Made by a program: the position numbers and the translations under genes. A DNA stretch of 40,659 nt from NCBI GenBank assembly GCA_001724265.1, contig MEDY01000283.1, positions 1-40,659 on the forward strand. Direction: 5' to 3'. Shown here piece by piece: positions 2,099 to 28,700 of this stretch (position 1 is its first letter; the number at the start of each line of letters is the position of its first letter). Under the pieces are notes generated by a model that saw only the letters and a list, made by a program, of their open reading frames with translations, was not told where the DNA came from and did not search any database. The stretch is from Rhizaria sp. SCN 62-66 (taxonomy: Eukaryota).

Positions 2099-5000
2099 AT
2101 GCTCGACACGCAGGGTCGGCGAGCCCGCTCTGATGAGGAGATTCAGGCCCAGATTGTTCGTGACACGGAAATTGCAGAATCAAATCCTCACAATCAAGAA
2201 GGAATACGCGCTAGGCGCCGCCTTGCCAATCTAAGCGATGCCGGCATGCACTCGCGCATGCGCCATAATGCAGTAAATTTCACCAAGGACAGACACGACC
2301 GTCTCTTACTGCGCGAGCGTGATGAGATCACCAGCCTACGCGACAGCGTTCCTGCGTATATTTGTGCTGTTGAGAAGCTTACTGATGCACTTTTACTTGA
2401 GAACAATGACGTTTGTACGCTAACCGCCGCGATCAACGTTGAGTGTGATGCTGCTGCTGAAGTTGCCGAGTGCGTGCGGGCTGACAACGTTATCGCTTGC
2501 TGCAACCATACCAAGAGCAAAAACAGCGCGTTCATCCTACAAGAAGGTGCTGAGATCCACCGCAGGTCTTCAGAGCGGGTGCGCACATATGCAGCTATTA
2601 TTAGCAAGCTTGCTGCGCTGCTAACAAGTGAGTGTGATTGCCGCACAGCGAACTCTACGCTACTTACTGAGGCCAGTACCACTCTCACTAGCACAGTCAG
2701 GGGCTCTATTGCATTCAGTGACTACCGCGCTGCCAAAATGAAGGCCATTGGCGAGTCAGCGATTGTAAACGAGTGTGCTGTTAACGCTGCCGCGGATAGT
2801 AAACCGGTATACGAGCGTGTGATCGAGGCTACGCGCACAACAGCAGACGCTGTGCGTCACGCCGCACAAGCAGCTGGAGCTCTTGTTGAGAGCTACAACA
2901 ACAATGTGGCTGCATTGAAGAGCTGTGCTGCTGCGCATGCGGCTGCATCTAATGTGATAATGGAGGGCGCACGCGCTCGCATGCCAATAGACGCTCAGGG
3001 TCGACGTAATAGCTATATCTCCAACGACACTGAGAAAGCAATGGCTATCATCAGCGAAACCGCTGTGAGTGACGAATGCAAGAAGGCGCATGTTGCGATG
3101 GGAACTGCTATGATCAACAGCGCAGCAGCACGCGCAATGGTGGCTGCTTCAATTGAGCACAGCGTAGCCGCTGCCATGGCTGAGTCTGACACGCACAACA
3201 TTACTATTGTCGCGCGCCAGAACCATGCCAACATCATCCCTCTCCTTGCACAGGCCCGCGTCGACTGGGGCAGTGCTTATGTTATCAAGGCAGCCGCTGA
3301 GGCAAACGCAACACATCTTAAAACAAACATTAATAACGTCACACGCAAGCCCCTTGGCATTGAGATGGTTGCAAATGCACGTACGTTCAACTGTAGTGGT
3401 AACGAGCTTGTCACTAGGACGCACCACATGTCAACAATGGCACTCTCGCTGCGGACTTTGACAAATTCGCGTGTGCTGGCCGTGGAAAATATGTATAAGG
3501 AGATGAAAGTTAACGCTGTACAGGAGATTTCCAGCCAGAAGGTACGTGAGTACAATAAGGACATGGCGGGCAAGGCCATTTCCAAACATCACGACGATGT
3601 ACTGCCGCATCATGCTGAGATTGTGGCGCGTGGGACGCCTGGTGTATTTGGTGAGGAGCAACAGATTCACACTCAGCACGGGTTCATGCATATTGCACGT
3701 GTGTATCACAAGCTGCAGCAAGGCGAGGAAGTGTTCGCTATGTGCTACGACACTGAGCTTAAGAAGGCTGTGTACAGTACCTTGCGCGTGAGCCAGTATG
3801 CTGGTCCCGCAAAGACTATGTGCATCCTGACTGCAGAGAACGAGAAGCGCCGCTGGCTTCCCGACGCTAACCGCTACGGCCAGACTGAACACTCAGCTGA
3901 TGACAGTAAGTCGCATCCACAGTCAAACTTTCTCTCCTCAGTGGTCTCTGATGACCTCGCCGTGTACGCGCAGATTGGCGTTGACTCAGCCCGCGGTGGT
4001 AAGTTTCATAGTGACTACCCGCACTAGGCGATCGCTGCTGGTGCCTTTGTTGGCAGTGACACTACTTTGTTGCGCATGCTGAGTGCTGCACCAAACGGTT
4101 ACGAGCCGCCACAGGGCTGCCCGTTCCGTCGTCAGTTCCTCGCTGAGATGCGCCGGCTGCGCTGCAAGAACGCAGCCAAGCGTCACCTCTTCCTGGAGCT
4201 GCTGGGCATGTGGCTAGGTGATGGAACTATGGGCTACAGTAACAGTCGCCGTGCTGTTCTTTTTGTCCAGCGCAAGGAGCGTGACATCAGCTTCATCCAA
4301 CGTACGCTATCTGCACTTGGCATCAAGCAATGGAAGGGTAGCAAGCAGCCTAGCCGTGACACTCACGGCTGGGCCATCTACAAACCTAATTGGTTCAGCT
4401 TTTTTGACCGCTACTTTGGAGATAAGTATAAGGAGGGTGCCACTGGCCAAGGAGTGCAACAGCGCGAGAGCCCGAAGAGCGCCAAAGGGGCGCTGCCTGC
4501 CTTTCTCCTCCTTGGCCTTACCAAGGAAGAGTCCAGGCTCGTGCTCAAGGGTCTCTGGCGTGCTGATGGTCAGAGTGCCGGCACAGGAGCGAATAAGATT
4601 TACACCAGCTCACGTGTGTATGTTGACAACATCCTGCAACTTGCGCAAAACGGCGGATACGGCGCGCGCTTTAACTTATCTCACCCCAAGGGCGCGTGCA
4701 GTGGGTTCACAATTGATGGAAGAACATACAGACTGCGTGAGTACGCGGAGCTGCCTCTTGAGATCAAGGCGGCAGCTAAGGCAATCGTTGCCACTGTGGA
4801 CGGCTATGCAGTGTGGTTTTCAGACGCAGTTAGCGGCAACACACTGTATCCTGCTATGTCGAGCAGCAGCATAGTCACGCGGAGGAGCTGTGACCGGGAC
4901 CGGCTTTGGGTGGTGGAGGTTGACCACACTGATCACATCGTTCTCACGCGCCGCGCCGCTGTCACCAGTATCAAGGGCAGGCGCGTCGTTTTCAAGGCCT

Positions 5001-6001
5001 CTCGCCCTGTGTTGGTCGGTGACTCAGTCAAGCTGATGAATGGCAGTCACTTCGGCGCGCGCCAGCTTGACGCCAACACCCGGAGCGAGGCCGTTGGTGA
5101 GCTGACCATCAAGATGGCTTACGACAACGACAGCAATGATGACGACGTTAATGTTGGCGCCTATAACAGGTACCACTTCCGTAACGTTGTCATTGTAGAC
5201 GACATCCCGCTGGTTAACGATGTCTTAGTCGAGTCCGATGAGGATATCGAGATGGACGGTGTTAGCCGCGACCAGGTTGAGGCGGCTGCTGAGGCTGATG
5301 ATGCGCGTCGCGACTCCGCCGAAGCAGAGTATGTGCGTCGTGTCACTGAGGCTAATGCTACAGAAAATGGTGTCGCTGTCACTGCTGAGACTGATACTTA
5401 TGCTGCCGCCGTTGCTGCTGCCGCACGAGCTGCCAACGCTCGTATTAGTCAGGCAGTTGATAACGGCACTAACGACATGCACGATGTTATCAATCGTATG
5501 AACAATAACAGTAACATCAGTGTCAACATCAACAGTAGTAATACCAACAATCATGGTACTGATAGTGATGCAATCGATCTTACTTTGGATTCCGACTCTA
5601 GTAATGATTACGATGATGAGAATGATGATGATGATGATGCTGTTGCGGCTCACTGTTTTCTGCATAGCAAGCCCAACGAAGTGCATGCGGCCGGACAAGC
5701 TCAGAACAACAGTGCCAGTGCAAGTGCTGCCACAGCTACATCACTATCAGCTGCAACGACCGCTGCTACTGATGTTGCTGCTGCTGCAGCTGCCGCTGTT
5801 GGTGCTGTTAGTTACGAGGATAACGATGACTATGACATTCTAAGTAAGCCTGTTGTTAAGCGCCCCCGTGGTCCCATTTACACTTACATGACTGCATATG
5901 GCGTTTACAGTAACAATAACCCTAGCAATGTCAATGGCAGTTTCATCAGCAAGAACAACAGTAGCAATAACAGCAACAATAACAAAAACAACAATATTTA
6001 A
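2099..6001 (+). CDS. Large hypothetical protein (~1300 aa): Ala-rich helical N-terminus, intein-like Hint/LAGLIDADG module, acidic/Asn-rich tail; one internal in-frame TAG
   Basis: ORFs 2099-4027 and 4067-6001 share one frame, separated only by TAG 4025-4027 and 13 sense codons. Intein-like blocks lie on both sides of the TAG. The gene ends in TAA. Confidence 0.75.
3644..5023 (+). mobile_element. Degenerate intein-like element (Hint domain + DOD/LAGLIDADG homing endonuclease), 460 codons
   Basis: Block A-like VFGEEQQIHTQHGF; block B-like LSSVVSDDLAVY; LAGLIDADG motifs FLELLGMWLGDG (4190-4225) and VLKGLWRADG (4541-4570); block H-like IYTSSRVYVDNILQLAQNGGY; block F/G-like LWVVEVDHTDHIVLTRR...ASRPVLVGD|S. 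Confidence 0.8.
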
Positions 6002-6083
6002 GAATAACAACGCGAATAAGAAGGACTGTGAGAGGTACTCTATTAAAACATTGCCAGTTACTGCCAGTTATATGTACATATCT

Positions 6084-6170: not shown

Positions 6171-6556
6171 TTTTTGCATCCCCGTACTTGGCCACTTCGG
6201 TACAGCCGCTTTGAGAAAAAGCCTACAATTTGCAGACGTTCGACCGTCTCGACGCGACAAACGCGATTTTTAGATTACTTAGTCCATAAATCGGATAACC
6301 AAGTAGGAGTCAAGATAGACAGATTCATTTGTAAACTTGATGCATCAGGATCTCTCGTTTTTTAACTATTCAAATCTGTTTTAATTTTTTCGAGTGGTAC
6401 CAATGACGGGGTATAAAGACATTCTCAAAAATCGCAGGAGGTGAAGAAAAAGTTGTTGTATTACTGGTACCAGTATGTTTTGTCATGGAGACTGTCATGG
6501 AAACTGTAGACTTTGATTTAATGTTAAGCTTTTGTCACGTAATATAATACTGTATC

Positions 6557-7096
6557 TTGTTACAATCGCCATTCTGCATAAAAATCCCTTCGCACAGCAA
6601 ACCACTGTGAAAATCGCCACCCAACAACCATGGCCGCCGTAATATTAGTAGTGTTTTCCTGTGTACACAGACTTCTCTTTTCTGTGAAAACAACAATAAC
6701 AATTTATGATATCAGAGACACAGTATATAATTCGAATTATATACTTGGTTCTTATCGTTTTCATAGAACAAGAGAGTCTGTGTTCACAAGAAACGCCATC
6801 TTTATATCGCGGCCGGAAATTGCTGTTGATGAAGGGAATTTGATGCGGTGGTATTTTCTGTGTACACAGACTTCTGTTTACTGTGAGAACAACAACAACA
6901 ACAATTATTCATATCAGATACACAGTATATGGGTCGGATTATATACATCGGTGTTGTTGTTTTCATAGAAAAGAGAAGTCTGTGTTAACAGAAAACAGAA
7001 GTGTTGTACATAAGAAACACCGCCTTTATATCGCGGCCGGCAATTGCTGTGCGAATGGGATTTTACCATGGTTATGCAGAATGTCGGTTGTAACAA
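6557..7096. mobile_element. Non-autonomous TIR/foldback (MITE-like) element
   Basis: Imperfect TIRs at 6557-6600 (TTGTTACAATCGCCATTCTGCATAAAAATCCCTTCGCACAGCAA) and 7044-7096. The interior is two ~200-bp tandem units, each palindromic. 6665-6696 and 6954-6985 are inverted copies at 31/32. No target-site duplication identified. Confidence 0.7.
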
Positions 7097-7273
7097 CATC
7101 TTTTCTGGAAACTCTCGGGTTTGAAGAATTCTTCATCGCGCAAGGGCGTGAGCGGCAGACAGACTAATACACATAAATACGAACTCAAGAGATTGCTCAT
7201 CGAGATTAAAAATGTGCCTCAAAAGTAAAACCAAGCACGCTGATGTAAGAAAGGCACAATGTGTACTCATCCC

Positions 7274-7938: not shown

Positions 7939-8896
7939 TCACTGCAGGTGGCCGAGCAGCGCCGTGGTGTCCGCCTTGACGTTGTCAATGCGCTCTGCCG
8001 AGAGCGAGAGCGCGGTGGAAGCGGCGCCGGTGACGGGGACAGCGAGCGTGGCGGTGACGCGCGCGAGCAGGGCGATTGTGCCTGCACTGGCGAGCGCGGC
8101 GCCGGCGCGCTGGGCGGACAGAGGGGCGCAGCGCGATGCGAGGGCGGCGGCAGCGTCGCGGGAGAAGATGACTGCACTGGCGTTGACGCTCCTATAGAAC
8201 CAAAAAAAGGTCAAAAATGAAAGCAAGAGTGATGTCGTATTCGGCATCGAAGCAAGTCATCAGAGCAAGAGAGAGCGCCGTTACGTACCCTCCGAGCGCG
8301 GCAATAAAGGGTTCCAGCGCGACTTTGGCGGGCCAGGCGAGTTGGGTGCGCACGGTGCGTTCGGGGACGCTGGCAGCGCCAGCGACAAGCGCGGCGACGC
8401 GTGCGATGCGTGCGAGCGTGGGCAGGTCGTCGAGGCCACGCTGGAGCGCGGCGCGTTCGGCGGCGGTGCCCAGGGCGTCGGCGAGGGCGTCGCTGGGCGC
8501 GGGCCAGTGGGCGAGCGCGGCGGCGGCGTGCGCGGCGGCGGCGTCGGCGGTGGAGAGGTCGCCGGCGGCGAGCCGGGAGGCGATGTCAGCGAGCGCGGTC
8601 AGAAGGGGCGCAAGAGCGGGTTCGATCGGGGCCGGGGCGCCGCGGCGGTCAAGCGCGGCGGAGGCGAGCGGGTACTGGTGCGCGTTGATGAGCGCAAGGC
8701 CTTGGAGCGCGCGGGTGAGGAACACGCAGTGCTGCGGGAGGGAGGAGAGCTCGGCCTCGGTGAGGAGGTCCGCGACAGCGCCCCAGGAGCGGGTCTGCGC
8801 GTGGGCGACAACGCGCGCGGACAGCTCAGCGCGCGGAAGAATGGCCGGTTCGGAGAGCAAGTCAGGCAAAGGACCAGTGGTCGTCGACGCCAACAT
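7939..8896 (-). CDS. COP9 signalosome subunit 8-like (CSN8/PSMD8/eIF3K family) protein, 2 exons (8896-8289, 8191-7939), ~286 aa
   Basis: The splice joins ORFs 8192-9085 and 7939-8247 in frame (GG|G). N-terminal RSWGAVADLLTEAEL and C-terminal LSAERIDNVKADTTALLGHLQ-TGA resemble CSN8 ends. The similarity is weak and by eye. Confidence 0.5.
8192..8288 (-). other. Spliceosomal intron (97 nt)
   Basis: GTACGT donor, T-rich tract, TATAG acceptor; removal restores the reading frame. Confidence 0.85.
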
Positions 8897-9502
8897 AGCC
8901 GTTCTATACGAGGACGAAAGGGGAGGAGCAACGTTAGGTCCGTGCAGCAACACCGCTAAATGATTACGCAGTGATTTTTCATGTGTCCGTCGCGTTTCGC
9001 TAATTGAGCATGGTGACAACCACAACTCGTCTACAATACTGCTATGCTGTGATATACCGACACATTTCGAGGAAGACAGCTCCAAGGAAGATAGGCGTCA
9101 CATCAAGACTCAACCACAACGCTATTTCGCATTCTGAAGAGTATTCCTAAAAGTTGAACCGTCAACCGTAGTAAACTAAACCGAAAAATATCCAGATCAG
9201 TTCGTTTGACGATCATAGACGTGCTACAGCGTGCTTTGAAGTTGGACCTCCCAGATCCCGCAAGCTCCACCACAAACGCTGATTGCAAGACATGACTGAA
9301 GTTTATTTATTGGTTGATTTGTACAGATTCATGTGACACATTTTGCATACAAAAGCACGTGAGACACAATTCACTCACATGCATTTGGCCACACTCGGGA
9401 AAATCCTTTTGATAAGTGGTTGTATGCGTCTCTATCGTCAGAATTCAATAGTACGTAGTACGTATAGGTGCGTTACAATCACAAGGCAGCATCCGCAACA
9501 CA

Positions 9503-13640: not shown

Positions 13641-16600
13641 ATGGACATGCGTATACATAGTCTACGCGGACAGAACGTGATGCATTCTCCCAACAGCTCG
13701 ACAGAGGTTGCCCCACTGATGTTGTCTTCGAAGTTCCCTCGTCACCTGCCCATGTTCATGCACAACAAGGCATAGAACTTGCGCGAAAAGCTGCTCAGGC
13801 AAGCTAACGCGGTGTACAAGCACCGCTTTGAGCTTTTACAAGACCCGTACGTTCACTCCTACATGCACACTGTCTCCAACGCCAAACCACCACAACTTGT
13901 TTTTCAAGTTAACGTCGTCCTCAATTTCGGCATGTTTTAGCCGACATAATGTAAAATGGAATGAACTCAAATCCCAAACACCATACTCTGAAATTATTCA
14001 TTTTTACAATGGTAGACGTCGAATGTCACTCAACTATGTTTCTGGGATGATTACTTCAAGTGGCATGTTCGCGGAGAGTACATTTCTTGAAGTCTATCTT
14101 TATAGTTACTCTTAAAATACCAATCGTCCAAATATGCAGGCTTGTGTTAAAAGATGCTTTCTCATGTGTTGCTCAATTCATTTGCTTTCTTTTCTGTCAC
14201 ACAGCCATGCTTCAACGGACATTATGGCGCTTGTCGAGCAACATGCAACTCTGCTCACGTTCCTCGCTTCAGCACCGCTTCATGAGCCCTCGGCGGTTGC
14301 CCGCGCGCACCGCGAAATTGCCCGATTTGCGCGTGCCCATCCGACGCTGTTTGCGCGCACGGCGTTTGTCTCCGCACTCCGCACGAGCGACGTTGTCATT
14401 GTTCTCAGCGGCATAACCACTAACGAGAGCGTTCAAGCGGATGGTATCAGTTCCAGTGACGAGCTAAGCGCAGAACTGTCGCAGTACGTTGCTGAAACGA
14501 AATAGCTTCGCGATAAAGCTGTGTTTTGCGCGCTGAGGAGTGATGATGCTGTAGGGCGCATTGCGGCTCGCGTCAGTAAGCACTGGGGGGAGGGGAACAA
14601 GCAGATTCCCATGGTTCTTGGTAGCAGAAGCCAGGCTGGTGATGACTATGAAAACTCTGTTAGTTCACACACCTCCGTAGTCTTAGTCACGGAGGAGTCT
14701 GCGGCGCAGCAGCTCTCGAAACAGCCATCCACCCACTCATGTCATCAGCCACAGCATTCATTGCTGTCGTTGCAACAAAGCCTTCATCACACGCGGCTAC
14801 GTGTGTCCTCTTTGCTGATGCAGCATGCACCACAGTCACGCCTTGGCCACTCCGAGCCGCACCCCTTTATGCACTCAGAGTTGCCCAGCCCGTTCACCGA
14901 TCAGCAGCACCACTGCTTGAAGTCTCCGGTTGCTTACCTTTCTTGCGCACGCACCGTGGCCGTGTGCCCTTTACAAACACGCCTGATCTACGCTTCCAAG
15001 ACAACTGTCCTTAGCGCTTTCTATGCGTTTATTGTCAAGTCGCTCCAATCTACTTACGACAGCTCTCGCGCTCATCCGATGCTTGCACAGAACAGAGTCA
15101 CCTCTCGCGGTGCCGTGGTCTCTGGTGCAGTCTTGGGTTGCGTGCTCTTAGATTGCGAGTTGCTTCTGACTCTTCCAGGTGTTGCACTTGCTAACATTGC
15201 TGCCGTCAGCGCGGGCCGCGGTGTGCGTGTAGTGGTTGTTGCCCGCAGCGACGCAGAAGCGTCCGAGTTAGAGGCGCTGTTTACGGCCGCGGGAGCGCGC
15301 GCGCTAGCTGCTGACTGCCTTACAGCTGCGGCCGAAACTGCCGACATCGCCACACCTGTTCGCTTTGGCGCGCCTGTGCGGACTGTGGTGCCAAGAGAGT
15401 TTGTTGTCAACCGCGTAACACTGCCTCGTTGTGCCAGCACAGCGGCAGGATTGAAGGAGACATGTTCTTTTCCCACTAGCAACGGAGACGACAGGGCAAA
15501 CACTAAGCTTATGCAGAGCTCTGATTTCGCAAAGCGCTTCCAGGTTTTGTCTCACGCTGCAGCGAGTGAAAAGAACGGCTTGGCTAAGCGCCTTTCGGGC
15601 TTGCCCAGCGCAGCAAGTCTCCCGACATCGCTTGCGCCGCAGTCACCTTTAACACACGCGTCATTCGTGCTGCCAGAGTCTCAGTCACACACACCTGAAC
15701 AGCTCCACGGACTCACCGCGGTTAGGCGCGTGGTGTTACCGCCAATCCCCACAGACGCTTGCTCAAGCTGCAACGCCGTTCACTGTGATTGCGCGATCAC
15801 CAGCCTTGATAACAACGGCGAGGATGACGACGGAGCTACGCTGGTATTTACTGCTAGCGACAGCGACAACAAAGTCAGCACTCCCAGCTCTCATCGCTGT
15901 ATCTGCGCAATTGGTGGCGACTGCAGCGACTGCGCGACACGGATTACGACAGAATTTGCTCGTTCACTCAAGCGACTCAACGATCCAGCTCCGACTAACA
16001 GCGACAGCGATGGGGTGTGCGGCTGCGGCGCAAGACGCTGCGAGGGTGATTGTGAGTTGTCATTTGCCGCTTCAGGCCATCTCCCGTTGGCAATCTCAAA
16101 CAGCTTTGATGCGTGGGCACTTGCCGGTAGCCGTAGCTTTGGCGCATGTGAGACGGAGTGCGGCAGCAACAGTGGCGTGTTTGAGACGCAACGCAACGCA
16201 AGCCAGTCGTTTGACAGCGTTGCAGGGTATCATCTTCCTGCAGTTAACACTGAGGTTGAGGGCAGTGTGCGCAGCAGGCGTGCTATGACTATTGTGCACA
16301 ACGACAATAGTGATAGCGATGACGATTGCGTGCACATGAAGTGGAATAGCAAGAGCTTTGAGCTGAGCACGACAGAAGCCCCGCCGTTTACCGTTTCATC
16401 TTCAGCAAAGCCTGTGATGGCTACAGCCACGGCTGCCCCAGTAATTACAGCACCGTGCAACTGGTCGGTACGTGATGTCGTGCTTACAGTTACAGCACTC
16501 TTACCCTGGGTCCGCGCTGTCTACTTACCTCAAGCTGCCGGTGCACAACGGCACAATCCCACCTTGTCTTCTTGTTGGGGTTGGTCAAGGGATGTTGTCA

Positions 16601-17934
16601 AGACTGCGACGAACGAGCTTGCTGTCTTAGGTGCAATTGCTGAGGAGGAGCAAGTTAGTGTTGTCGACACATTTTTTGCACGCACCTACAACATTGCATC
16701 AGAGCTTCAAGGTCAACAAATGGCTCCAATTTCAACAGTGAGCGTAACCGCCGCCGCTAAAGCAGCTGCAATTGCATCCTTGAACATCACTTCGTCTCCA
16801 GTCACCGCGGTTTCCTTGACGGGCGCTCTGGCCCTAACTGCAGGCTGCTCTCTTGAGGTCGCACGCATTGCACTTGCTGGTTGCGGTGCGCATCCGCTCG
16901 CGCCGGTGTCCACTGCCCTGCTTCTCGCTGCGCTTGTTCACACACAGCAAGAGTGCGCCGCTAGTGGCAACGTCTATGGGTTAGGTTATGGCAGTTTATA
17001 CAACTCACTGCAAAGCGTGACAGCGTGGCGTGACACAAAGATCGCTCTAGAGTCGGCGCCGCAGGGAGACAACGAGAAGAGAGATGCAACCGCTGCAGCG
17101 GCAGCTAACGTGTTATCATGTATCGAAGAACGCTCAGGCATTTCATCCACAAGCTACGCTAAGATCTTGCGTACTGAGCGACATTTCGAATCTGCGCTCA
17201 ACCAGGCGCTGGGCTGCTTTGGCGTTTCAATGGCAACTACGGCCGCTGCATCGCAAGTGACGGCGGGTGCTGTGGGCAGCTGCATTGCGTACGGCTTCTT
17301 TATGAACGCAATGCGTCGCGTTACGCCACGCTGTGTCGACACTGACGCGCTCACGCTTGGACTCCGACGCGCGAGGTTTGCAGCATTCACTCCGCCGCTA
17401 AACACAGGCGCAAAGACTGGAGCACGCGCGGTCAGTGTGCTGGACTGGCGCAAGCGCGCGTACGGTGACATAAACACGTCGCCCACGTCTAACATGGCAG
17501 CGAGCTCAACTCTTACAGATGCAAGCAGTATGTAGATTCGGACACCGTCACCGATGGGCAACTGCCGTTGCCATGCACATTTCCAAGTTGAGACCGAACA
17601 CACTGCAGCGCTGGGCGACGCAGACAATTCAAAATGGGCTGTGTATACAACTGCGCGTGTGCACACAGTCAACACATATGAGTCAGACTTTGTGGACTGC
17701 ACGCTGAGCGACTGCGAGCTATGCTTCGAGGGAGAGCGCGGACTGGTGTTAGTCGACACGTTTACGCCAGTCACACTACAGGACTTGCTAATAGCTGCTT
17801 CACAAACGACATGCGCATCTTCAAAAACACATTTGGACAGCCATGTTTCTTGTGATACAAGCTCACAGACAGAGCGCCACCTTAACGCGGTGCACGAACA
17901 TTTCGTGCGCTGTGATAGTTTTATCTACATTTAA
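13641..17934 (+). CDS. Hypothetical protein (~1310 aa) with Cys-rich clusters; probable exons 13641-13846 and 14205-17934; three internal in-frame TAGs
   Basis: ORFs 14134-14505, 14521-17535 and 17554-17934 share a frame, broken only by TAG 14503-14505 and TAG 17533-17535; the gene ends in TAA. GTACGT donor 13847 and CACAG acceptor 14204 join FELLQDP|HASTDIM in frame. The upstream exon has TAG 13773-13775. The 5' end is uncertain. Confidence 0.65.
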
Positions 17935-18352: not shown

Positions 18353-21300
18353 TTAAGGCTTCCACCACATCCATCCCTGCGCGTCAACAGGCCAGAACCG
18401 CACACCAACGGCCATCTCGTTCAAGTCTTCACTGCGACGCCATCCACTGTTGCTGATCTTTCGCCCGTGCACACTCTCAGCACGCGTTACATCCAACGTG
18501 TTCGCGCTATTTCCGCTGCCTAAGCCCTCTGTCTCGACACGGGGGTCGGTGCGCGGACTCCATAGCAGCGGCCTGCGCTGGCCCGCGCGCGTGTCAAGCA
18601 TCGGCACCAGCGCGTCCGTGCTCCCCGCACAGCCCACGGCGCGCACCGAGGTACGCGCCTTGTTGCGCGCCCAAAGCTTCGTCTTCATCGCGTGGCCATT
18701 GCGAATTATGACATCCCCGCCGTTGCGCAAACGCGCGATGGCGAGAGCCCGCGCCTCCCAAGCGTCACCTGCGGCTGCCCTAGTTGCAGCGACAACGGCG
18801 GCGGTCTCGCGCGGTCCGGCCAGCCGCACGCGCACAACAGCGCGGTCCCTACGCGGCTGCTGCAGCGCTGTACGCGTGACGGTCAGCAGCCAACGCCGAG
18901 CAACAAATGCGCGTGCAAGAGACGGAAACTGGGGTGCGAGCACTGCATCCGGGACAGTCACAGTTCGGTCATCAAATGCATTACTCTTCCAATAGGCAGC
19001 GTGAGTAGCTGCATTGTCAGTCTCTGGCATACGCGCTTCAGCGGCGCTCAGCGGACGAATCACTAGCATAAAGTCAAGCTCTTTCGCGTTGCTTAGACTC
19101 TCACAATCGGAGTTGTCACTATTTTGCGCCTCAGCGGGGAGTGCTGAGATGTGGCAGCCGTGAACAATGCGGGCGCTGCGAAGCGAATTCGCGGTATCGG
19201 ACTGCTTTTTCTTTTTCTGTTGCCGATCCGCATCGCTTGCATTAGTACTCACATAGTCATCACATGTATCTGTACCGTGATCGTTTTCGGCTTGCGGCAG
19301 CTTCTGGCTCCACTGCAATCCATCAGCGCGCAGCAAGTGGGAGAAAAAGTGAGTTCGGAGTGCTGACACAGCCTCAGCACGCGGTTGGGTCGCGGCTGCA
19401 GCGACAACTGCAATCGCCCGCGACAGACAGCCTTCAAGAAGAGCTGTTGATACAACCGGCTTTTTCACTGATGTTGCCCCAGCTTCAACATTCGGCGGCG
19501 TCTGCGCAGCAATTGCGTGCAGCAGAGCGCGCGCAGAAATGAACACATGCCCATGCGGCGACACAACCACAGAGTGTGCAGACAGCAGAGCGCCAGTGGC
19601 GGCAGTGAACGCTGCAGCGCGCCGCGAGAGAGCAGCCACGCCCGCCGTGAGCGTCGCCGCAACAGCATCATGACTGCTCTCACGCACAGCCTCGGAAGTG
19701 GCAGCGCTGGCCGAGGCGCCGGCGTGTTGCGGAATGGTCGACGGAAAAAGCGCGAGGCGAGCGCGAACTCGATCAAACGCGAGGTTTGCGTTCGAAGGGT
19801 CTTCAACCCACTTCGACTGCACAGTGCGGGTGCCATCTGCGTCTGAAGCGCTTGCATTGCAGTCAGACTCGTCGCTGCGCAGACTGTAACTGCTAAGTGG
19901 TGATGACGTTGTCAACAACAAGCGACCGTCAGAGGCCCACTGCGCATGCACAACAACTGCACTCACATTGCCATTGTCAGTTGCAGTATCAGAGTCTGAG
20001 TTGTAGGCGACATGAACATTGGGGTCATTGCTAAGCATGCGCACAATCCGGTCTTCAAGAGTTGCGATGAGACGCTCTTTGCTAAACCCAAGGAGCGGCC
20101 GTAACACGCGCACGCGCGGCAACACACCCGCGCTCTCGCCACCACCACTATGACTGCCGGAAACACCACCGTAGCTCTCTGTAGCACTCATCGTCGCCGA
20201 GACCGCGCGCGCAAGCAGCGCCGGCTCCCGCGCTGCAGCGTACACGAACCCCCCGTCCAGCGTTCGCGGGGTTAGCGCGCGCACCCGCGTCGGCGCAATC
20301 ACGGTTGCGCCCGCGACAGCGACTGTGGCCGCGGCGGCGGGGCCTGCGAGGCCAGGCAGCGCAGAGCCACGCAGCAGACGCATCAGAGTCGTTTCAACGG
20401 CGTCCCCGCTGTGGTGGCCTAAGCACAGCGCCGGGAGAGCGCTGGTCACGCTGCGCTGCGCAACATCTCCCGCTATTATGGAAGCCGTTGTTGAATGCGC
20501 CGCCGCTGTCGCTGCGGCCGCGGCCACGTTAGCATCCGCAGCTGCGGAGTCCGCAGCAGTGCGCGCAACGCGGGCGCGCAGGATAGCGGCCCGGGCGGCG
20601 GGCGACGGCGACGCTGCACCAGCAACAACAGCAGCAGCCCCTGCGACAGAGCTATCTGACTCAGCGACCGCACTGTTGTTGCGCGGTAGCGGAGAGTACT
20701 GCGGATACAAGACCCTCGCCTCGGCCTCTGCAGCTTCGGCTGCAGCGTCAGCGGCTTGACTAGCCTCCGCGGCCGCCGCCGCAGCAGCGGCTGCAGCTCG
20801 CCACAGCGTCACAGCAGCGGCGTCAGCGGCGCGGGACTCAGCAATAGCATCGCCCGCGGCTGCGGCTGCGGTGGCGTTCGTGTCGGGCCCTGCAGCGGTG
20901 AAGTCAGCCGGGTCAACCGCGCTCTGCAGATGACTAGGTGCAGCATGTGCTTGACTGCAAGACGACTGCACGTAGCCATGAGCATCATGGTTAAGCGCTG
21001 GCTCAATGTAGACTCCCCCGTCGACGAATGCGCTCACCACACGGCCCTGTGACAGCGATTTACTATGGGCAAGCGTCTCCGCTGGCAGTATGTGGCCGCT
21101 GTTGCTGTCGCTATCCGGCAGCGGTTGCGGCTGCGGCTCCGGCAACTGCGCCGCATACAGTTGACGCGGCGCTGGCGACTAGGACGCAAAGGGCGGCGGC
21201 GGCGGTGTCACAATAAACGGCAACAACGCGCTGTCATCGTCAGTGGCACTCACGGCCCTGGGAGCCACAGCAGCGTCAGTGCTGTCAAATCTGTCATCGT

Positions 21301-22366
21301 CGTCAGACAACAAGCGATGCGACGTGGCGGCGTCTTGTTCTGCGCGCTCCAAACGCTCTGAGCGCTCTGCGCGGGCTGCCGCCACCGTCGTGTATCGGTC
21401 AGGCCGCGCCTCGCCCTCCCCTTCCAGGCCTTCACCAAACTCGTCCTCGGGCTGCTCACTCGCTGCCCCAGTCCGCTGCAGCCACTGCCACTGGCGCTGC
21501 CGCCGCCCGGTCCGGCTGTGCTGGCCGACTTGCGGCGCGCGCTCCTCCGGCGTGGCGCGCGGCGGCCGCGGCCAGTGGAGCGCACACACGTGCTGCAGCA
21601 GCAGCGCGCGGCGCCGCACGCGGGCCGCGGACTGCAGCGACTTGAGGCTCGGCCGCGGGGGCAGAGCGGGCGGCGCCGCAGACCGTGCTGTCGCTGTCTG
21701 AGAACGGGACGCTTGGTCGTCTTCTGTAGCGCTGTCCGCGTTAATGCTGCTCACGCTCTCGCCCCACTGCATCGCGAGAACGTCGGTCTGGAGGCCCGCA
21801 GAGCGCAGGAAGCCCGCGACGGCGGCCGCCTCGGCGCTAGCCTCCGCGCGCAGCCCGTGGTCGACGACGGCGGCCCTTACACTGGCTAAGGGTACGCAGC
21901 TGTGCGCCCATTCGTGGAGGAGCAGAGCCAGGGCGAGGGAGTCTGCGCCACCAGAGACTGCGGCGACGATCAGTGGTGGAATGTTGCTGTTGCTGTTGTT
22001 GCGTCCAGCGTCACTGGTGTTCGAATCGTAGGAAAACAGCGCAGTAAGAGCCTGCGCAAACTCTTGCGGAGTAATTGGGGCGGCTGCCTGCAGCGTAGCT
22101 GACGGCACTAACAGCGGCGCGGTTTCACGCTCAGCGGCAGCGGTTACAGTGTGGGCTGCACGCGTCGAGTGAGAGTACACCTGGCACGGCAGTTGGCGCA
22201 GGGAGGGAGGCGAGGACGCAAGACAGCGGAATGACGCACCCAGAGAGCTGGATAGCACTCCGCGCCTGTTAATTCTAGTGGAGGGGTCCGTCAAACTGCG
22301 TGGTGCACTCAGAGTGACGATGGAGCGCGTTGCGAGGCGACGCGCCACAGCAGAGACGCGCAGCAT
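18353..22366 (-). CDS. tilS: tRNA(Ile)-lysidine synthetase (TilS/PP-loop), probably mitochondrion-targeted, ~1337 aa, one internal in-frame TAG
   Basis: AVSGGADSLAL, VDHGLR and QSAARVRR lie before TAG 21179-21181. GHHSGDAVETTLMRLLRGS, LRPLLGFSK and WVEDPSN...FDRVRAR lie after it in the same frame. Arg/Ser-rich, acid-poor N-terminus MLRVSAVARRLATRS. Ends TAA. Confidence 0.9.
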
Positions 22367-22734
22367 CAGGCAGTTGATGCAGCGCTTCACGACTTGGCGC
22401 GATTTTTCAAGCTATAAAGAGGCAATGAAAACATGACAGACAAATAATAGTTAACAAGCAAATGGACGTCTAAATCTGCCCCCAACAGCCGTTAATATCC
22501 ACGAATTGTTCGAGTTGGCGATAATTATCTTTTCTGATGGAGTGTTGAGGTGTGAGCCCGCCTCTTGCGAGTCCACTTCCACATTGTGTGTCACCTCACA
22601 CCATCCGTAAATATCGATATAACAACAACCTTAAGTTGTATATTTATCGCGAAATCTTGAATCCATTTTTCAATTTTAATCTAACTTTGATTGCCATTCC
22701 CCACACTCATTTTTATCTCCCCCAGTGGGGACTC
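22367..22734. promoter_or_regulatory. Putative bidirectional promoter region between tilS and MCM9
   Basis: 368-bp AT-rich spacer between two divergent ATGs. Inferred from position only; no motif identified. Confidence 0.45.
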
Positions 22735-25700
22735 ATGAGCTTCGCGCCACCTCACGGTCCCGGCGCAGGCCGCGGCGGCACCCCAGCGCCCCCACACCCC
22801 GGCCCGGGAGCACTTTACGGCGGAACACCGCGCGCCACGGCCCCCGTGCCCGTCTATATCCAGCCGCAGTCTTCACAGCAGCCCTACGGCCCGCAGCAGC
22901 GGCCGAGTCTGCATCAAACCCAGTCCCAGCACTCCCAACAGCAGCAGACTTCCTCTTCGTCGTCTTCGTCACACTCGCTGTCGCAGTCTCAGTCCCAGTC
23001 ACAGTCGTATTCGCAGTATGGATACTCCCAGCAGCCACATGTGCCCCAGTCCCCGCATCAATTTCAGCACCAGCACCCTGCACAGTCGCCGATGCAGCAG
23101 CTGCCCACACCAATGAAGCAGTCGCCGCTGCAAACGCCACTGCAGACGCCGCTGCAGACGCCACTACACTCGCAACGGCTGCCCTACGTGCAGACGCACT
23201 CGTCCGCTGCGCCGCAGCTCTCGCAGCAGCAGCCGCCACCGCCGCCGTCTCAGCGCCAGCGGGACCAGCACTCGTGGTCGCCATCCCTCTCGCAGCGGTC
23301 GCAGTCGCAGAGCTACGCACACGCGTCGCCGTACGGCAGTAGTGCAGGCGTAGTTATCAGTGATGACGACTACAATGACTACAGTCTTAACTCTAACAAC
23401 GATGCAGGTTCCAGTAGCGGCGGCGTGAATCCTTTCGCTCGCGTGCACACCCGCAACCCCCCTGCGCCGCCCTGTCCCCAGCCCCTCCCCAGCAGCAGCA
23501 GCAGCGGCGGCCCTTCGCATAACACTGCACCGACAGCAGCAGCAGCAGCAGCGCCGGCGGCGGCGAGTAGCGCGCCCCTGTTTGTGCCGTCCCCGCTGCT
23601 GTCGAGCTACACCGCGCCCTTCGCGCCGCCGCTGGGCTCCGTCCCCGCGCAGGCCCGCGCGCAGCTGGGCCCGCCGACCGCGCCCGGGTACGTCGCGCGC
23701 CTCAACGAACTGCTCTTCGCCACGGCGCCGCCCGCCGCGGCGGCCCCGCCTCCCGCCGCGGCCATATTGCGCCACGCCGAGGTGACCGTGGGCTCGTTCC
23801 AGCAGTTCTTCGCGGCCTACCTCGTCGCGCACCAGCCCGCGACGCTGCGCGCGCTGCTGCTGGCGCCGGAGCCGCTGCAGTACCACCGCCTGCCGGTCTC
23901 GGTGGCGCAGCTCTGGGCCGTACATCCGCCCGCGGCGCGCGTGCTGTTGGACCACGCCGCCGCGCTGCTGCCCAAGGTGCTTGGCGACGCGGGCTTCGAG
24001 GCGCAGCAGGTCTTCCGCGAGATCCTCAATGCCGAGCACGAGCGCGAGTGGGAGCTCGCCGTGCTTAAGCTCCAACAAACGCACCATCAACAGCAACAAA
24101 GGCAACACGAACAACAAAAGCAACGGGATGGCTTCGGGTTTGCCGCTCCGGACTTTCCTGCCTTTGCCGGGGCCTCGCTCGTGCTGCCGCCGCGGCCGCA
24201 GCTCATCACGTCGACGGACCTCAAGGTGTACCTGTCGCCCGCGCTGTACGCCGTGCCACCGCTGTACCCCTACTTCCGCCCGCTTTTCTCCTCCCTGCGC
24301 GCGCGCGACCGCGACCGGCTGGTGGTCACGCGCGGCGTTGTCACGCGCGTGGAACCCGTGTCGGCGATCGAGGGCGTGCGCGTGTACCGCTGCGACCTCT
24401 GCGGGTACCGCTTCAATGTGGAGCCGCGCATCGACCACGGCGCGTCGCCGCCCATGCCCAGCATCTGCCCCTCGCGCGTCGCCGCGCAGGGCGACCTCAC
24501 CGGCGCCATCACGGCCGCCGCGGCCGCGCGCGGCGCCGGCGCGGACGACGACGACCTGCTCGCGGCCGCCGAGGGATACGTTTATCCCGCCGCCCCGCAG
24601 TCTCAGCCGCAGTGGGGGCGAGGCGGGAAGAGCCGCGGCCGGCAGCGCGGCGGCTCCGGCGCGGGCGGCGGTGGTGCGGACGCGCCGAAGCTGTGCAGCT
24701 CGCGCATCTTCTCCGTCGATGAGAGCTCGCCCGTGTACAAGCGCGACTTCCAGCGCGTGCGGCTGCAGGAGCTGCCCGTCTTCAACAACAACGGCGGCGG
24801 TGGCGGCGGCAGCGGCGACGGAGACGGTGACAGCGGCGGCGGCGGCGGCGGCGGGCGCGTGCTGCCGCGGTCCATGGTGATGATCCTGCAGGACGAGCTT
24901 GTGGGCACGGTGCGCGCGGGCCAGCGCGTGGCCGCCACCGCGCTCGCACTGCGGCAGTGGGATACGCTAGTCCCGCAGCAGCGCACCGACATGGCTTTCG
25001 TGCTGCTGGCCAACCACGTCGAGGTGCTCGACGCCGACGCCGCGGCGCCCTCGGTGACGCGAGCCCAGCGAGCGCGCGTGCGTGAGCTCTGCGTGACGCA
25101 TCGCTACAGCCCTATGCAGCTGCGCGCGCGGCTTATCGCGTCCGTGTGCCCGCAGCTCTGGGGGCTCGCCGTCGAGAAGCTGGCCACGCTGCTCACGGTC
25201 ATCGGCGGCGTCGAGCGCGACGACTCGCTGCCGAGCAACAACAACAACAGCGGCAACAGCGCGCACATGAACAGCCTCACGCACGACGGTGGCGCAGGCT
25301 CCCAGTCCGCCGGCTCCGGCTCGGGGTTCCGCGTGCGCGGACAAAGCCACCTGCTGCTGATCGGGCCGCCGTCGATGGGCAAGTCGCAGCTGATGCGCTT
25401 CGCGGCGCGCCTGGCCCCGCGCGCCGTCACCACCACGGGCACCGGCTCCACGGCTGCGGGGCTCACCGCGAGCGTGAGCATGTCCGCCGACGCGGGCGTG
25501 GAGCCGGGCGCGCTGGTGGTCGCCAGCGGCGGGCTGTGCTGCATCGACGAGTTCGGCACCGTGCGCAAAAGCGAGCGCGCGGCGCTGCTCGAGGCCATGG
25601 AGCAGCAAACCGTCTCCATCACCAAGGGCGGCGTGAGCGTGCTGCTGGACGCCAAGACCACGGTCCTGGCGACTCAGAACCCGCGCGCGGCGGACGGCAG

Positions 25701-28700
25701 CTGCAGCTATGACGCGGGGGCCGACATGACCACCAACACCGGCATCGAGCCTCCGCTGCTGTCGCGCTTCGACCTCATCGCCATCATGGGCGACCTGTCG
25801 GGTAAGGACTGGGATGCCCGCGTGACGCGGCATCTGCTCGACTCGCTGCCCAGGCCTGCTGTTGAGGACGTCGAGGCCGCGGCCGCGCACGTTAGCGCTG
25901 CCATCACGCGCGCGCACGCCGCCAGCGCTGCGAACAATGACTTCAGTGACGGTGCCGCTGCTTCTGCGATGGCCGGCTCTCCGATATCTCCGGGGCCGCA
26001 CCGCTACAACAACAATACCATGAACAACGGCGGATTCACAACCCCACAGCAAAGCAGCCACAGCCACACGTCGTCTGCGTCCAACAGCGCACTTGCCAGC
26101 TTTCGCACGCCTGGTGGCTTCACGAGCCCGACGGCGGCCGCTACCGGCGCTGGTGCAGCGCCGCGGGTGGAGACGGTCGAGGAGGCGCACCTCGCGGACC
26201 TGATGTCGGAGCTGGCCCTTGCGCGCAACAGCAGTGCCCGCCCTGGCGGCAGCGTCGGCGTCGGCGGCGCGCGCGCAGGCCCGCTCTTGCCCGTATCAGC
26301 GGCGAACGCCCACGCCCTCGGCCTCGGCTCCGGGCAGTTCGGTCCATTCTCGCCGCAGCCCGGCCAGCGCGCCGCAGTGTCGCCCGCGTCGTCGCTGTCG
26401 CGCGCGTCCGCCAGCGCGCGCTCGAGCCCCGCTTTGCTCTCGCCGGGCGCGAGCTCGCTATCGCTTGCCGTTCCCTCTGCAGTCGCTGGCGGCGTGGACC
26501 CGAGTCTGGCCCTGCGCGGCGGCGCGGTAGTCGCCGTCGCGGCGTCGCACCGCATCGTCAACCCGGGCCGCGAGGGCGAAGCCGCCTTCGATAGCGCAAG
26601 TCAGAACAGCGATAGCCCGCCTGTGCACGGCGGCGTCAACAGGACGCCGGTCGCGGGCATGCGCACGCCTGTTGGCGCTGGCGGCCTTAACGCGGGCGCT
26701 CACCCCGGTTCTTTCAACCAGCAGCGAAGCGGCGGCGCTGCAGTGACACCATCCTCCGCGACGCAACCACACTCGCGCTTCAACCCGCCTACATCGCAGC
26801 ATCAGACGCAACAATCGCCGTTGCCCGGTGCCGATGTGAGACGCGATCGCGAGCCGCGGTATCTCGTGGAGCCCGCGCAGCTGTCGTTCAACATGCTGCG
26901 GTCATACCTGCACTACGTGCGCACTCACCTGCGCCCCACGATCTCCAAGTGGGCGTACGAGGTCCTCACACGCTACTTCCGTCTGCGGCGCGAGCGCGCG
27001 CGGTTCCAGGCGCCCGCGGCGATGTCGTTCGTGACAGTGCGGCTGCTCGAGGCGCTGCTGCGGCTGACTCAGGCGCACGCGCGGCTGCTGGGCAGCGCCG
27101 AGGCGCGGCTCGTCGACGCCGTGAGCGTTGTCCTGCTGATGGAGCACCTGCAGGCGGGGCAGGAGCACGGCGGCCACGTCGCCGGCGGCGGGCTCGACCC
27201 GCAGTACCTCGCGCTGCGGCCGCCGCGGGCGCCGCGCTCGCCCGCGCCGTCACCCGGGCAGTCGCAGCTCCAGTCGGTGCATCCGCTGTCACAGCAGGGG
27301 TGGCGCGCGGTCACTCGCGCGGGGTCGGTGGCCATGCTCGCGCGCACTCAGTCGCACATCGACAGCAACAGTGCCGCTGGCACCGCGCGTGATGACTACG
27401 CGTCTGACGAGTCGGTCGGCCCTCCCCCCGTGCCCGCGCGCTCGCTTTGCCCGCCCGCGCCCAACGGCCTGGCCTGGGACCCAGACGCGGCCTACCTCCG
27501 CGACGAGGCGACCGTGCTTGCGATGCTCGGCCTGGACCCCGCCGCGGTGCCCGTACGCGAGCGCCTGCCGCTCTACCCGACGGACCCGCGCTGCCCGCCG
27601 CACCGCGAGCCGGGCGCCGCGGCCGCGTTCGCCGCCGCACTGCATGGCGCCGGCGCAGACGGCGCACCCGCGCTGCAGCAGTCGGCCGCGCTCATGGGCG
27701 TGTCGGCCGACGCGCGGCACGCGCGCACCGCGCTCACGGTTGCTGCGACTGCGGCGGCCGCGTCGTCGGCGGCCGCGGCGCAGGAGCGCGCCCGCGCCGC
27801 GCGCGCGCTCGAGGACCGCGTGGAGGGCGAGGCGTGGTCCGCGCTGCTGGCGCGCGTCGAGGCCGCGGAGAGGGCCGAGGAACTGTCGTGGCGCGCGCAG
27901 AGGCACGCGGACGCGCTCGCTGCGACTGAAAACGACGACTTGAGCGACGCACGTTCTGGCTCTAGCTCTAGCGTGAACAAACCTGGTGCGAGTGCGGCTG
28001 CGAGTACTGCTGCCGCCAAGGGTATTGGAGGCGTGTTTGTGGCGGCAGCGTCGACGTCATCTTCTGTAGCTGTAACTGCTTTGCCACGGGCTGCTCCGTT
28101 TAATACGATGCAACACAACACCCGAAATGATAACATGACCAGCATTAACACGGAGACCGTGGGCATGAATGCAGCACGCACAAATACTGACGCTGCGACG
28201 AGCAGTACGAGTGTTGCCAGCGCTAACCCCTGGGGGAATAGCGCAAGTTTCAGTCGTAATCCTGCTGAGCGAAATGCAAATGTGCATGCGTCCGCAGCTG
28301 CCCCTGGTGCACACGCCGCTGCGGGCGCGAACCGCCCGCTCGCTATGATCCCTGGCTTCGGCGGGGGCGACGCAGCTGGCTCTGCCTCGGCCGCTTCGGA
28401 CTCTGCGTCCACGAGCGCAGGCGCAAGTGTGAGTGTTGGTGGCAGTGTCGCTCGTATCGTAGCGGGTGATGCAGACTCTGTCATTGGTGCTAACGCATCG
28501 AGTCACGATGCAGCGCGATCAACCACTGCATCAGCTGCACAAGTGCCGCCTTACGCTGATGCCACGAGCGCTCAGGCGACTGCAAGCCGCGCCAATGTGA
28601 CTTTTAGCCAGTGGAACCCTGCGCCGTCGGCCCCTGTTTTCGCCCCATCGCAACAACAACAGCAACTTCACCGGCAGTCGGACTCGGCCGACGCGCTGTC

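Follow-up and report, generated by a model that had tools for sequence, protein, structure and literature searches.

The locus and its intein-derived module

A stretch of 40,659 nucleotides from contig MEDY01000283.1 of Rhizaria sp. SCN 62-66, referred to here as the window, carries a gene (gene A) whose product contains an intein-derived module between two long flanks. The standard-code open reading frames (ORFs) at 2099-4027 and 4067-6001 share one frame, and the first of them ends at an in-frame TAG that lies within the module. The features of gene A and of the other genes discussed are shown in Table 1.

Table 1. Features of the window. Family tallies count all family units that cover the column concerned (164 units from 148 relatives). 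aa, amino acids; HMM, hidden Markov model; AF2, AlphaFold2.
Feature	Position	Strand	Description
Gene A	2099..6001	+	ATG 2099, TAA 5999-6001; frame open from 2006; 1,300 codons if TAG is read through
N-terminal flank	2099..3643	+	515 aa, Ala-rich
Intein-derived module	3644..5023	+	460 codons; family HMM, AF2, Foldseek
Hint-N	about 3644-4048	+	
Position 1	3644-3646	+	Val (G/VFGEE); family Cys 113/113
Block B	3947-3958	+	S-D-D-L in place of T-x-x-H; family Thr 124/136, His 134/136
In-frame TAG	4025..4027	+	Variable loop between Hint-N and nuclease domain
LAGLIDADG endonuclease-type domain	about 4049-4843	+	
LAGLIDADG helix 1	4190..4225	+	FLELLGMWLGDG; WLGDG, Asp at 4220-4222; family Asp 97/150
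LAGLIDADG helix 2	4538..4570	+	LVLKGLWRADG; Asp at 4565-4567; family Asp 114/153
Hint-C	about 4844-5023	+	
Block F	4904..4957	+	LWVVEVDHTDHIVLTRRA; Val at 4910-4912; family Cys 137/140
Block G and C-terminal junction	4994..5026	+	KASRPVLVGD/S; Asp 5021-5023, Ser 5024-5026
C-terminal flank	5024..5998	+	325 aa
In-frame TAGs of orphan ORF 14116-17934	14503-14505, 17533-17535	+	ORF open across both
PP-loop (ATP_bind_3) gene	18353-22411	-	~1,350 codons; Pfam domain split by in-frame TAG
In-frame TAG of PP-loop gene	21179-21181	-	Between two halves of Pfam domain
MCM gene	22549-30429	+	2,626 codons, several-fold normal length
PIP5K gene	30835-37833	-	2,332 codons, several-fold normal length

The module is a genuine intein-derived unit of a Hint domain and a double LAGLIDADG domain. 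The family HMM was built from 18 full-length relatives with the window copy left out, and it matches the window at 3647-5032 (E 5.3e-86; HMM positions 11-470 of about 475). The colinear blocks A-B-(C-E)-F-G and the Hint fold are present in the alignment to those relatives and in the structural comparison, and the nuclease domain has the double-motif form with two helices that each end in an acidic residue. The sole Pfam family detected in the module is LAGLIDADG_3 (24.3-25.4 bits, cut-off 22.5).

The AF2 model of the module, built with a 31-row alignment, has a mean pLDDT of 89.7 and a pTM of 0.91. The best PDB matches of this model in Foldseek are 7qsu (TliVMA intein, E 9e-12), followed by 1dq3, 1ef0, 1lws, and 1vde. 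The matches to PI-SceI, PI-PfuI, TliVMA, PhoVMA, and PI-TkoII range from E 9e-12 to 2e-7 with a probability of 1.0, and the nuclease lobe matches the chains of I-DmoI (E about 1e-5; target template-modelling score 0.55-0.63). The AF2 model leans on the family alignment and therefore indicates fold compatibility and not independent proof of the fold. An earlier reading of this DNA, made from the sequence only, had called for such a fold check against PI-SceI and other structures, and the result agrees with its proposal of a Hint and LAGLIDADG unit. The residues that it listed (V1, SDDL, WVVEV, G-D/S, WLGDG, and WRADG) are all found in the translation at the places given. It had overlooked the in-frame TAG in the module and the membership of the module in a very large intein family.

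A large family of eukaryotic inteins

A phmmer search with the module as query, run exhaustively over 1.84 billion cluster representatives, identified its relatives. The hits at E<=1e-3 comprise 318 proteins; 174 of these reach E<=1e-10 and 25 reach E<=1e-30. In many of the hits, which are proteins of 487 to 4,510 aa, the similarity spans all 460 residues. The word-based homologue search ('near' and 'longer' length ranges) returned only the window's own protein, and the PDB sequence search with the single sequence and with the 31-row profile of the module returned nothing at E<=0.7. A canonical family member used as query in the ESM Atlas retrieved only generic intein and LAGLIDADG clusters (scores <=0.85). 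The family survey described below covered 148 of the 318 relatives, the window's own proteins being excluded, and these contain 164 module units. Two units per protein were observed in P0003, P0004, P0057, and P0060.

The 18-unit full-length alignment exhibits a canonical intein. The family starts with C-F-G-x-D-T-R-V-L-T and has S-N-H-L-S-L-R-V-T-x-x-H-x-M-Y-V-Q in the block B region. The LAGLIDADG landmarks are L-E-L-Y-G-F-W-L-G-D-G-S and then G-L-x-R-A-D-G. Block F reads W-C-V-T-V-D-H-x-D-H-L-I-V-A-Q-R-A and the family ends with T-K-A-S-R-P-I-I-V-G-(N/Q)/C.

The hosts of the family are plainly eukaryotic and very diverse, with dozens of unrelated nuclear proteins among them. A Pfam host family was found in 23/25 proteins, in 37/52 proteins, and in 14/14 metagenome loci in three sets. 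The hosts include motor, transcription, and repair proteins (dynein heavy chain at two sites, Rpb1, Rpb2, XPB, XPD, RecQ, and DNA polymerase B), tRNA synthetases (Cys-, Ile-, Met-, Glu/Gln-, and class II), and signalling proteins (protein kinases, dual-specificity and PP1-like phosphatases, PP2A-B56, and PI3/4-kinase). They also include components of the ubiquitin system (UBR4, HECT, and UCH) and of transport and trafficking (CRM1, importin-alpha, Sec23/24, adaptin, and the SRP receptor). At 16 metagenome loci (L001-L016) the intein lies at a Cys of a conserved host motif in a long ORF without in-frame stops. Some metagenomes hold several family loci, which fits many copies per genome.

The relatives on viral contigs are otherwise distant (22-31% identity). 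At one locus (L014/L029), on a 12.9-kb contig of 37% GC that a viral collection lists as a metagenome-assembled genome of a giant virus, an isoleucyl-tRNA synthetase is split by a family member (E 2e-55 with the family profile).

Splice and nuclease residues

The residues on which splicing would depend are all replaced in the window copy. These are the Cys1 nucleophile, the block-B Thr and His that would activate the N-scissile bond (Ser and Leu in the window copy), the block-F Cys, the terminal Asn or Gln that would cyclise, and the Cys at +1. The terminal residue of the family is Asn in 97 and Gln in 39 of 140 units (Lys 2, Ala 1, and Asp 1), and it is Asp in the window copy. The +1 residue of the family is Cys in 126, Ser in 9, and Thr in 2 of 139 units, and the Ser of the window copy is a permitted nucleophile. 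Both acidic residues of the LAGLIDADG helices are intact. The sequence-only reading had recognised both the altered splice residues and the intact acidic residues, and the family comparison bears it out on both counts. It had overlooked that the family itself ends with Gly-Asn/Gln; the lack of a penultimate His is therefore no defect of the window copy, which keeps the penultimate Gly found in 130/140 units.

In the family the nuclease residues vary more than the splice residues, and both acidic residues are kept together in only 74/139 units. Selfish inteins are expected to look like this, with splicing indispensable and the nuclease often decayed. Judged from these columns, the window copy inverts the family pattern, with all splice residues replaced and both nuclease Asp residues kept. 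The altered positions are, on the same alignments, true departures from a conserved family state and not an alignment artefact.

The window copy is accordingly almost certainly unable to splice, and it would not cleave at its junctions either. Splicing or self-cleavage by an unusual chemistry, such as cyclisation of the terminal Asp with Ser at +1, was considered as an alternative. The Ser at +1 is in favour of it, as are known inteins that end with Asp or Gln and known inteins without a nucleophile at position 1. The alignment exhibits neither a nucleophile at position 1 nor an alternative class 2 or class 3 nucleophile in the window copy. The sequence-only reading had argued that the class 3 route needs a block-F Cys, and with Cys in 137/140 family units and Val in the window copy that escape route is closed. 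Val1, the lost block-B His, and the lost block-F Cys together close the class 1, 2, and 3 routes as they are generally understood. We know of no family member with a replaced Cys1 that is active. Such chemistry is extremely improbable here.

The in-frame TAG

The homology of the module to the family is continuous across the TAG at 4025-4027 in both the alignment and the HMM match, and 658 codons are open downstream of it in gene A. The TAG is unchanged in the contig of an independent study (X3) and in a contig of a divergent strain (X9, covering 3974-4119, with its sole difference at 4062). Contigs of a further set (X5) end at 4024 and resume at 4026, which is the de Bruijn pattern of a polymorphism at the T of the TAG and gives a weak hint of such a polymorphism.

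The internal stops over seven gene models of the window are TAG in four cases and TAA or TGA in none, compared with 372 TGA, 128 TAA, and 120 TAG among the off-frame stops. All seven models end with TAA or TGA and meet the next in-frame stop within 1-26 codons, and the frames run on for 133, 658, and 942 codons after the internal TAGs. The four internal TAGs and the lack of internal TAA or TGA suggest read-through or context-dependent decoding of UAG in this organism, and the ribosome probably passes the UAG of gene A in one of these ways. Reassignment of UAG only is reportedly known in other protists. Plain reassignment is spoken against by the MCM and PIP5K genes, which contain no TAG in about 5,000 codons, by the two smaller ORFs at 1253-1873 and 8192-9097 (-), which seem to end at TAG, and by the absence of any tRNA gene, including the UAG suppressor that was sought, within the window. 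A short GT…AG intron that would remove the TAG was also considered and rejected, as none keeps the frame with a credible donor (GTAAGT at 3999 gives 29 nucleotides (nt)).

Two other products of the locus would follow if the UAG were not passed. In the first, the TAG is a true stop, gene A yields an N-terminal product of 642 aa at most, and the remainder is a decaying pseudogene. The in-frame position of the TAG, the X5 contig break, the ORFs 1253-1873 and 8192-9097 (-) that appear to end at TAG and are followed by non-coding-looking sequence, and the lower GC content at third codon positions (GC3) of gene A than of its neighbours agree with this explanation. It is nevertheless quite improbable, because the TAG is common to the reference and the divergent strain (X9) and yet the 658 downstream codons are open without gaps (X4 contig). 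TAG also lies inside the Pfam domain of the PP-loop gene and twice in the orphan ORF, and it accounts for each of the four internal stops but for just 120/620 of the off-frame stops.

In the second, translation restarts at ATG 4076 and gives a separate free-standing LAGLIDADG protein of 641 aa, with nuclease domain, Hint-C, and acidic tail but no Hint-N. This is where the standard-code ORF 4067-6001 and the database protein P0001 start, and the frame is preserved downstream. Such a product would lack the Hint-N strands that pack against the Hint-C strands in the AF2 model, and the family homology runs on across the TAG; we regard it as very improbable.

The flanks of the module

The flanks match no known family, in line with the remark of the sequence-only reading that they do not resemble the usual hosts of inteins. 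The N-terminal flank (16.5% Ala) has no Pfam family, finds only itself in the word search of 5.8 billion proteins ('near' length range), and has no usable ESM Atlas match; its recognition score of 1012 is unlike that of known proteins. The C-terminal flank has no Pfam family and no detectable relative. It is of low complexity, rich in Asp, Asn, and Ala, with a basic KRPRGP cluster near its end. No significant similarity was found between the flanks and the host proteins of the 148 family members; the single match of the C-terminal flank is marginal (P0133, E 0.0035, 10 bits). Pfam detects no zinc finger in gene A, and the C-terminal flank contains just one Cys and lacks any Cys-x-x-Cys cluster.

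An Ala-codon (GCN) repeat at 5699-5835 in the C-terminal flank exhibits hundreds-fold depth and many chimeric joints in all four runs. This repeat draws contigs of other organisms, so that coverage there is meaningless.

Retention or decay of the module

Besides the window copy, P0055, P0098, and P0112 deviate at splice positions among the 148 relatives, and no Pfam host family was detected in any of these three. P0055 is a fragment of 269 aa that lacks the block-F Cys and ends with …IVCD/SSF. It begins within the nuclease domain and stops three residues past the junction, as if cut by in-frame stops. P0098 (645 aa) has Ile at position 1, lacks the block-B Thr and His and the block-F Cys, and ends with …D/(H/F) in both alignments. 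After its junction it has an Asp/Ser-rich acidic tail and a KRRR basic cluster, like gene A. P0112 ends with GA/A.

The FastTree tree of 134 units (nuclease domain and Hint-C) exhibits a clade of the window copy, P0098, and P0055 with a Shimodaira-Hasegawa-like support of 0.954. The second FastTree tree, constructed from an independent MAFFT alignment of 45 sequences with nine other long-branch members, recovers this trio at 0.979, and P0112 and the other long branches fall outside it. All three members of the trio end with Asp, compared with Asn or Gln in 136/140 others. The Hint-C of the window copy aligns to P0098 with a score of 57, where shuffled sequences give 30.4±5.8 and 2/500 shuffles reach 57. 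A real clade would mean that dead copies have persisted while diverging to about 30% identity, which pure decay hardly explains.

The comparison of strains bears on the same question. The X3 contig (2296-4967) has 0 differences from the window. The X4 contig, from a strain with ~3.5% divergence, covers 3068-6077 with 104 substitutions and 0 gaps. The only indels seen are a -1/+1 pair in X5, 6 nt apart, that restores the frame. Neutral DNA is expected to gain several indels per hundred substitutions, and the scarcity of indels therefore indicates selection on the frame across both the module and the C-terminal flank. No RNA run containing gene A was found among the listed runs; X5 is labelled RNA-Seq but is probably DNA.

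The substitutions were analysed for 40 of the 216 strain differences, of which 4 lie upstream of the ATG and were dropped and 36 lie in the ORF. With an expected synonymous share of 28% from the observed mutation spectrum, the 36 differences (16 synonymous : 20 non-synonymous) give an omega of about 0.48 (p 0.025), and the flank part (8 synonymous : 7 non-synonymous) gives about 0.33 (p 0.03). The window copy keeps the family columns that are conserved at >=80% in 8/21 cases in Hint-N, 28/38 in the nuclease domain, and 10/16 in Hint-C, and Cys1 is lost. The nuclease domain is thus kept preferentially (28/38 vs 18/38 for the Hint halves and Cys1; Fisher p 0.034).

Taken together, we give about an even chance to the reading that the module no longer splices but is retained as a folded domain, probably with a role in DNA binding. 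Gene A would then encode a single long polypeptide, the central 460 residues of which derive from a prolific family of LAGLIDADG inteins in uncultured eukaryotes. The ribosome would pass the TAG at 4025, and the module, folded into its Hint and LAGLIDADG lobes, would remain part of the mature protein. The domain may further be kept by selection, because the dead copies form a clade. Its function, if any, would most likely be sequence-specific DNA binding through the saddle of the endonuclease, and nicking or cutting is conceivable since both metal-binding Asp residues are still present. The acidic tail and the basic KRPRGP cluster would suit a nuclear protein.

Several observations weigh against this reading. 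The intein part of the strain differences (8 synonymous : 13 non-synonymous) gives an omega of about 0.63 that is compatible with neutrality (p 0.21), so that the present constraint on the amino acids of the module is weak or absent, and the 40 differences analysed are a partial sample. The frame could persist merely because the C-terminal flank must be translated. In the nuclease domain 10/38 conserved positions are changed, and the losses include the near-invariant Arg of the 'FRD' motif (98%), a His (92%), and two Trp. The terminal branch of the window copy is the second longest of 101 (1.80 vs a median of 0.67). The first LAGLIDADG Asp of P0098 is Asn. The C-terminal flank is not significantly similar to the tail of P0098 (score 41 vs 32.7±5.5 for shuffles, reached by 50/500), and P0055 does not stand out in a count of shared rare residues (8 shared, rank 5 of 133). 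The trio could be a product of long-branch attraction and of the easy convergent single-base changes from Asn to Asp and from Cys to Ser. The apparent TAG ends of the ORFs 1253-1873 and 8192-9097 (-) belong on the same side.

The module may alternatively be an inert relic, mis-homed or duplicated into a fast-evolving, dispensable, low-complexity protein, where losing the ability to splice carried no cost. It would now drift, with frame and foldability alone under weak selection, and its Asp residues would have no role. The intein-part omega that does not differ from 1, the very long terminal branch, the lost near-invariant residues of the nuclease domain, and flanks that lack relatives and are scored unlike known proteins all fit a relic. 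So do the joint retention of both acidic residues in about half of the family units anyway and the pseudogenised inteins reported in Anaeramoeba in part of the account of Gallot-Lavallee et al. (2023; PMC10710043). The relic explanation is set back by the preferential retention of core positions of the nuclease domain, by the absence of indels over 3 kb between strains, and by the presence of three dead copies in one clade, whose identity of about 30% implies that they persisted long after they were inactivated. We consider a relic somewhat unlikely, and the main competitor all the same. The window copy has a mean identity of 27% and a maximum of 31.5% to the other units, whose mean identity among themselves is 35%.

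An extended form of the retained-domain reading would unite the window copy, P0055, and P0098 as orthologues or paralogues of one old lineage, in which splicing was lost once (Asn to Asp, with loss of Cys1 and the block-F Cys) and the unit was maintained as a module for DNA targeting, joined to an acidic tail that localises to the nucleus. It would be an intein domestication independent of HO, inside possibly the largest single-family intein expansion of eukaryotes, in an organism that reads through in-frame UAG. This extended form is unlikely.

Neighbouring genes and sequence context

The whole window looks like an intron-poor eukaryotic contig of bioreactor or wastewater metagenomes, and its GC content is uneven (39 to 76%). 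The genes adjoining gene A are very long single-exon ORFs with Pfam matches to MCM, PIP5K, PP-loop ATPase, and aquaporin (MIP). The GC3 of gene A (0.48-0.63) is below that of MCM, PIP5K, and MIP (0.77-0.92) and resembles that of two other ORFs of the window; foreign origin therefore need not be invoked. In the PP-loop gene the GC3 falls from 0.72 in the 5' part to 0.55-0.65 in the 3' part.

The family HMM scan found no further copies of the intein family in the window (next match after the module at E 6). A gap of 350 aa between the P-loop and lid domains of MCM was examined as a candidate intein and rejected, being Ala/Ser/Gly-rich low-complexity sequence. The AT-rich intergenic region at 6550-7100, 3' of gene A, contains units of ~200 nt in direct and inverted orientation with 78-90% identity, and this repeat may be a small mobile or satellite element. 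No duplicated fragments of a target gene of the kind that accompany WHO were found flanking gene A; only the Ala-codon repeats and this ~200-nt repeat are present.

Comparison with known systems

PI-SceI, PI-PfuI, TliVMA, PhoVMA, and PI-TkoII share with the module a Hint domain that is split by a double-motif LAGLIDADG domain. PI-SceI and the archaeal inteins splice, whereas the window copy is without Cys1, the block-B His, the terminal Asn/Gln, and the +1 Cys. No relation of the module to the VDE lineage was detected in the PDB sequence search. The metagenomic family with CFGxDTRVLT…WCVTVDH…GN/Q/C has the same block order and LAGLIDADG motifs as the window copy. Its other members lie at a Cys in conserved motifs of recognisable hosts, whereas the window copy lies in an orphan protein.

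To our knowledge, yeast HO and its WHO relatives are the only well-documented case of host re-use of an intein. The LAGLIDADG homing-endonuclease fold has also been reused as a DNA-binding module in WhiA, where the catalytic acidic residues are lost and a helix-turn-helix is gained. The window copy differs from WhiA in that both Asp residues are kept and the Hint domain is still attached. HO and WHO are, like the window copy, intein-derived LAGLIDADG proteins, and they do not splice, as described in sections of Coughlan et al. (2020; PMC7282813). The same sections propose that HO originated from an intein that mis-homed into another gene and made a fusion. By analogy, such a mis-homing event may also lie behind the window copy. 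HO and WHO have no exteins, no motif G, and a C-terminal zinc finger that is needed for cutting, according to those sections (PMC7282813). The product of gene A is unlike them in having flanks of 515 aa and 325 aa in the same frame, a recognisable block G, and no zinc finger. The free-standing, HO-like architecture suggested by the sequence-only reading is thus not what the gene encodes. Domestication of the nuclease in the manner of HO is possible.

In Anaeramoeba, 45-103 inteins per genome have been reported, with one similarity cluster in 24 proteins, in the portion of Gallot-Lavallee et al. (2023; PMC10710043) considered here. That portion also mentions pseudogenised inteins, atypical terminal residues, and links to giant viruses. 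Anaeramoeba is similar to the present family in that many inteins lie in diverse nuclear genes of one protist (PMC10710043). Compared by description, the present family appears to occupy a broader range of hosts than the largest Anaeramoeba cluster with its 24 proteins. Four family motifs were sought in part of the supplementary files of that account and were not found. The abstract and parts 1-2 of its Results contain no retained, in-frame, splice-dead copy, and pseudogenised inteins are treated in its supplementary information (PMC10710043).

Significance

If the retained-domain reading is true, gene A would represent a second, independent re-use of an intein, one that is still located between its flanks, and it would illustrate the path from a splicing element to an ordinary protein domain. 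The module would also provide a natural Hint and LAGLIDADG scaffold that tolerates permanent fusion. Inteins are generally seen as selfish passengers. If the module is a mere relic, it would represent the end state of a homing cycle in a host gene that tolerates a dead intein. The occurrence of one intein family in dozens of unrelated nuclear genes of uncultured wastewater protists extends the finding in Anaeramoeba and provides a large data set on the non-allelic spread of inteins.

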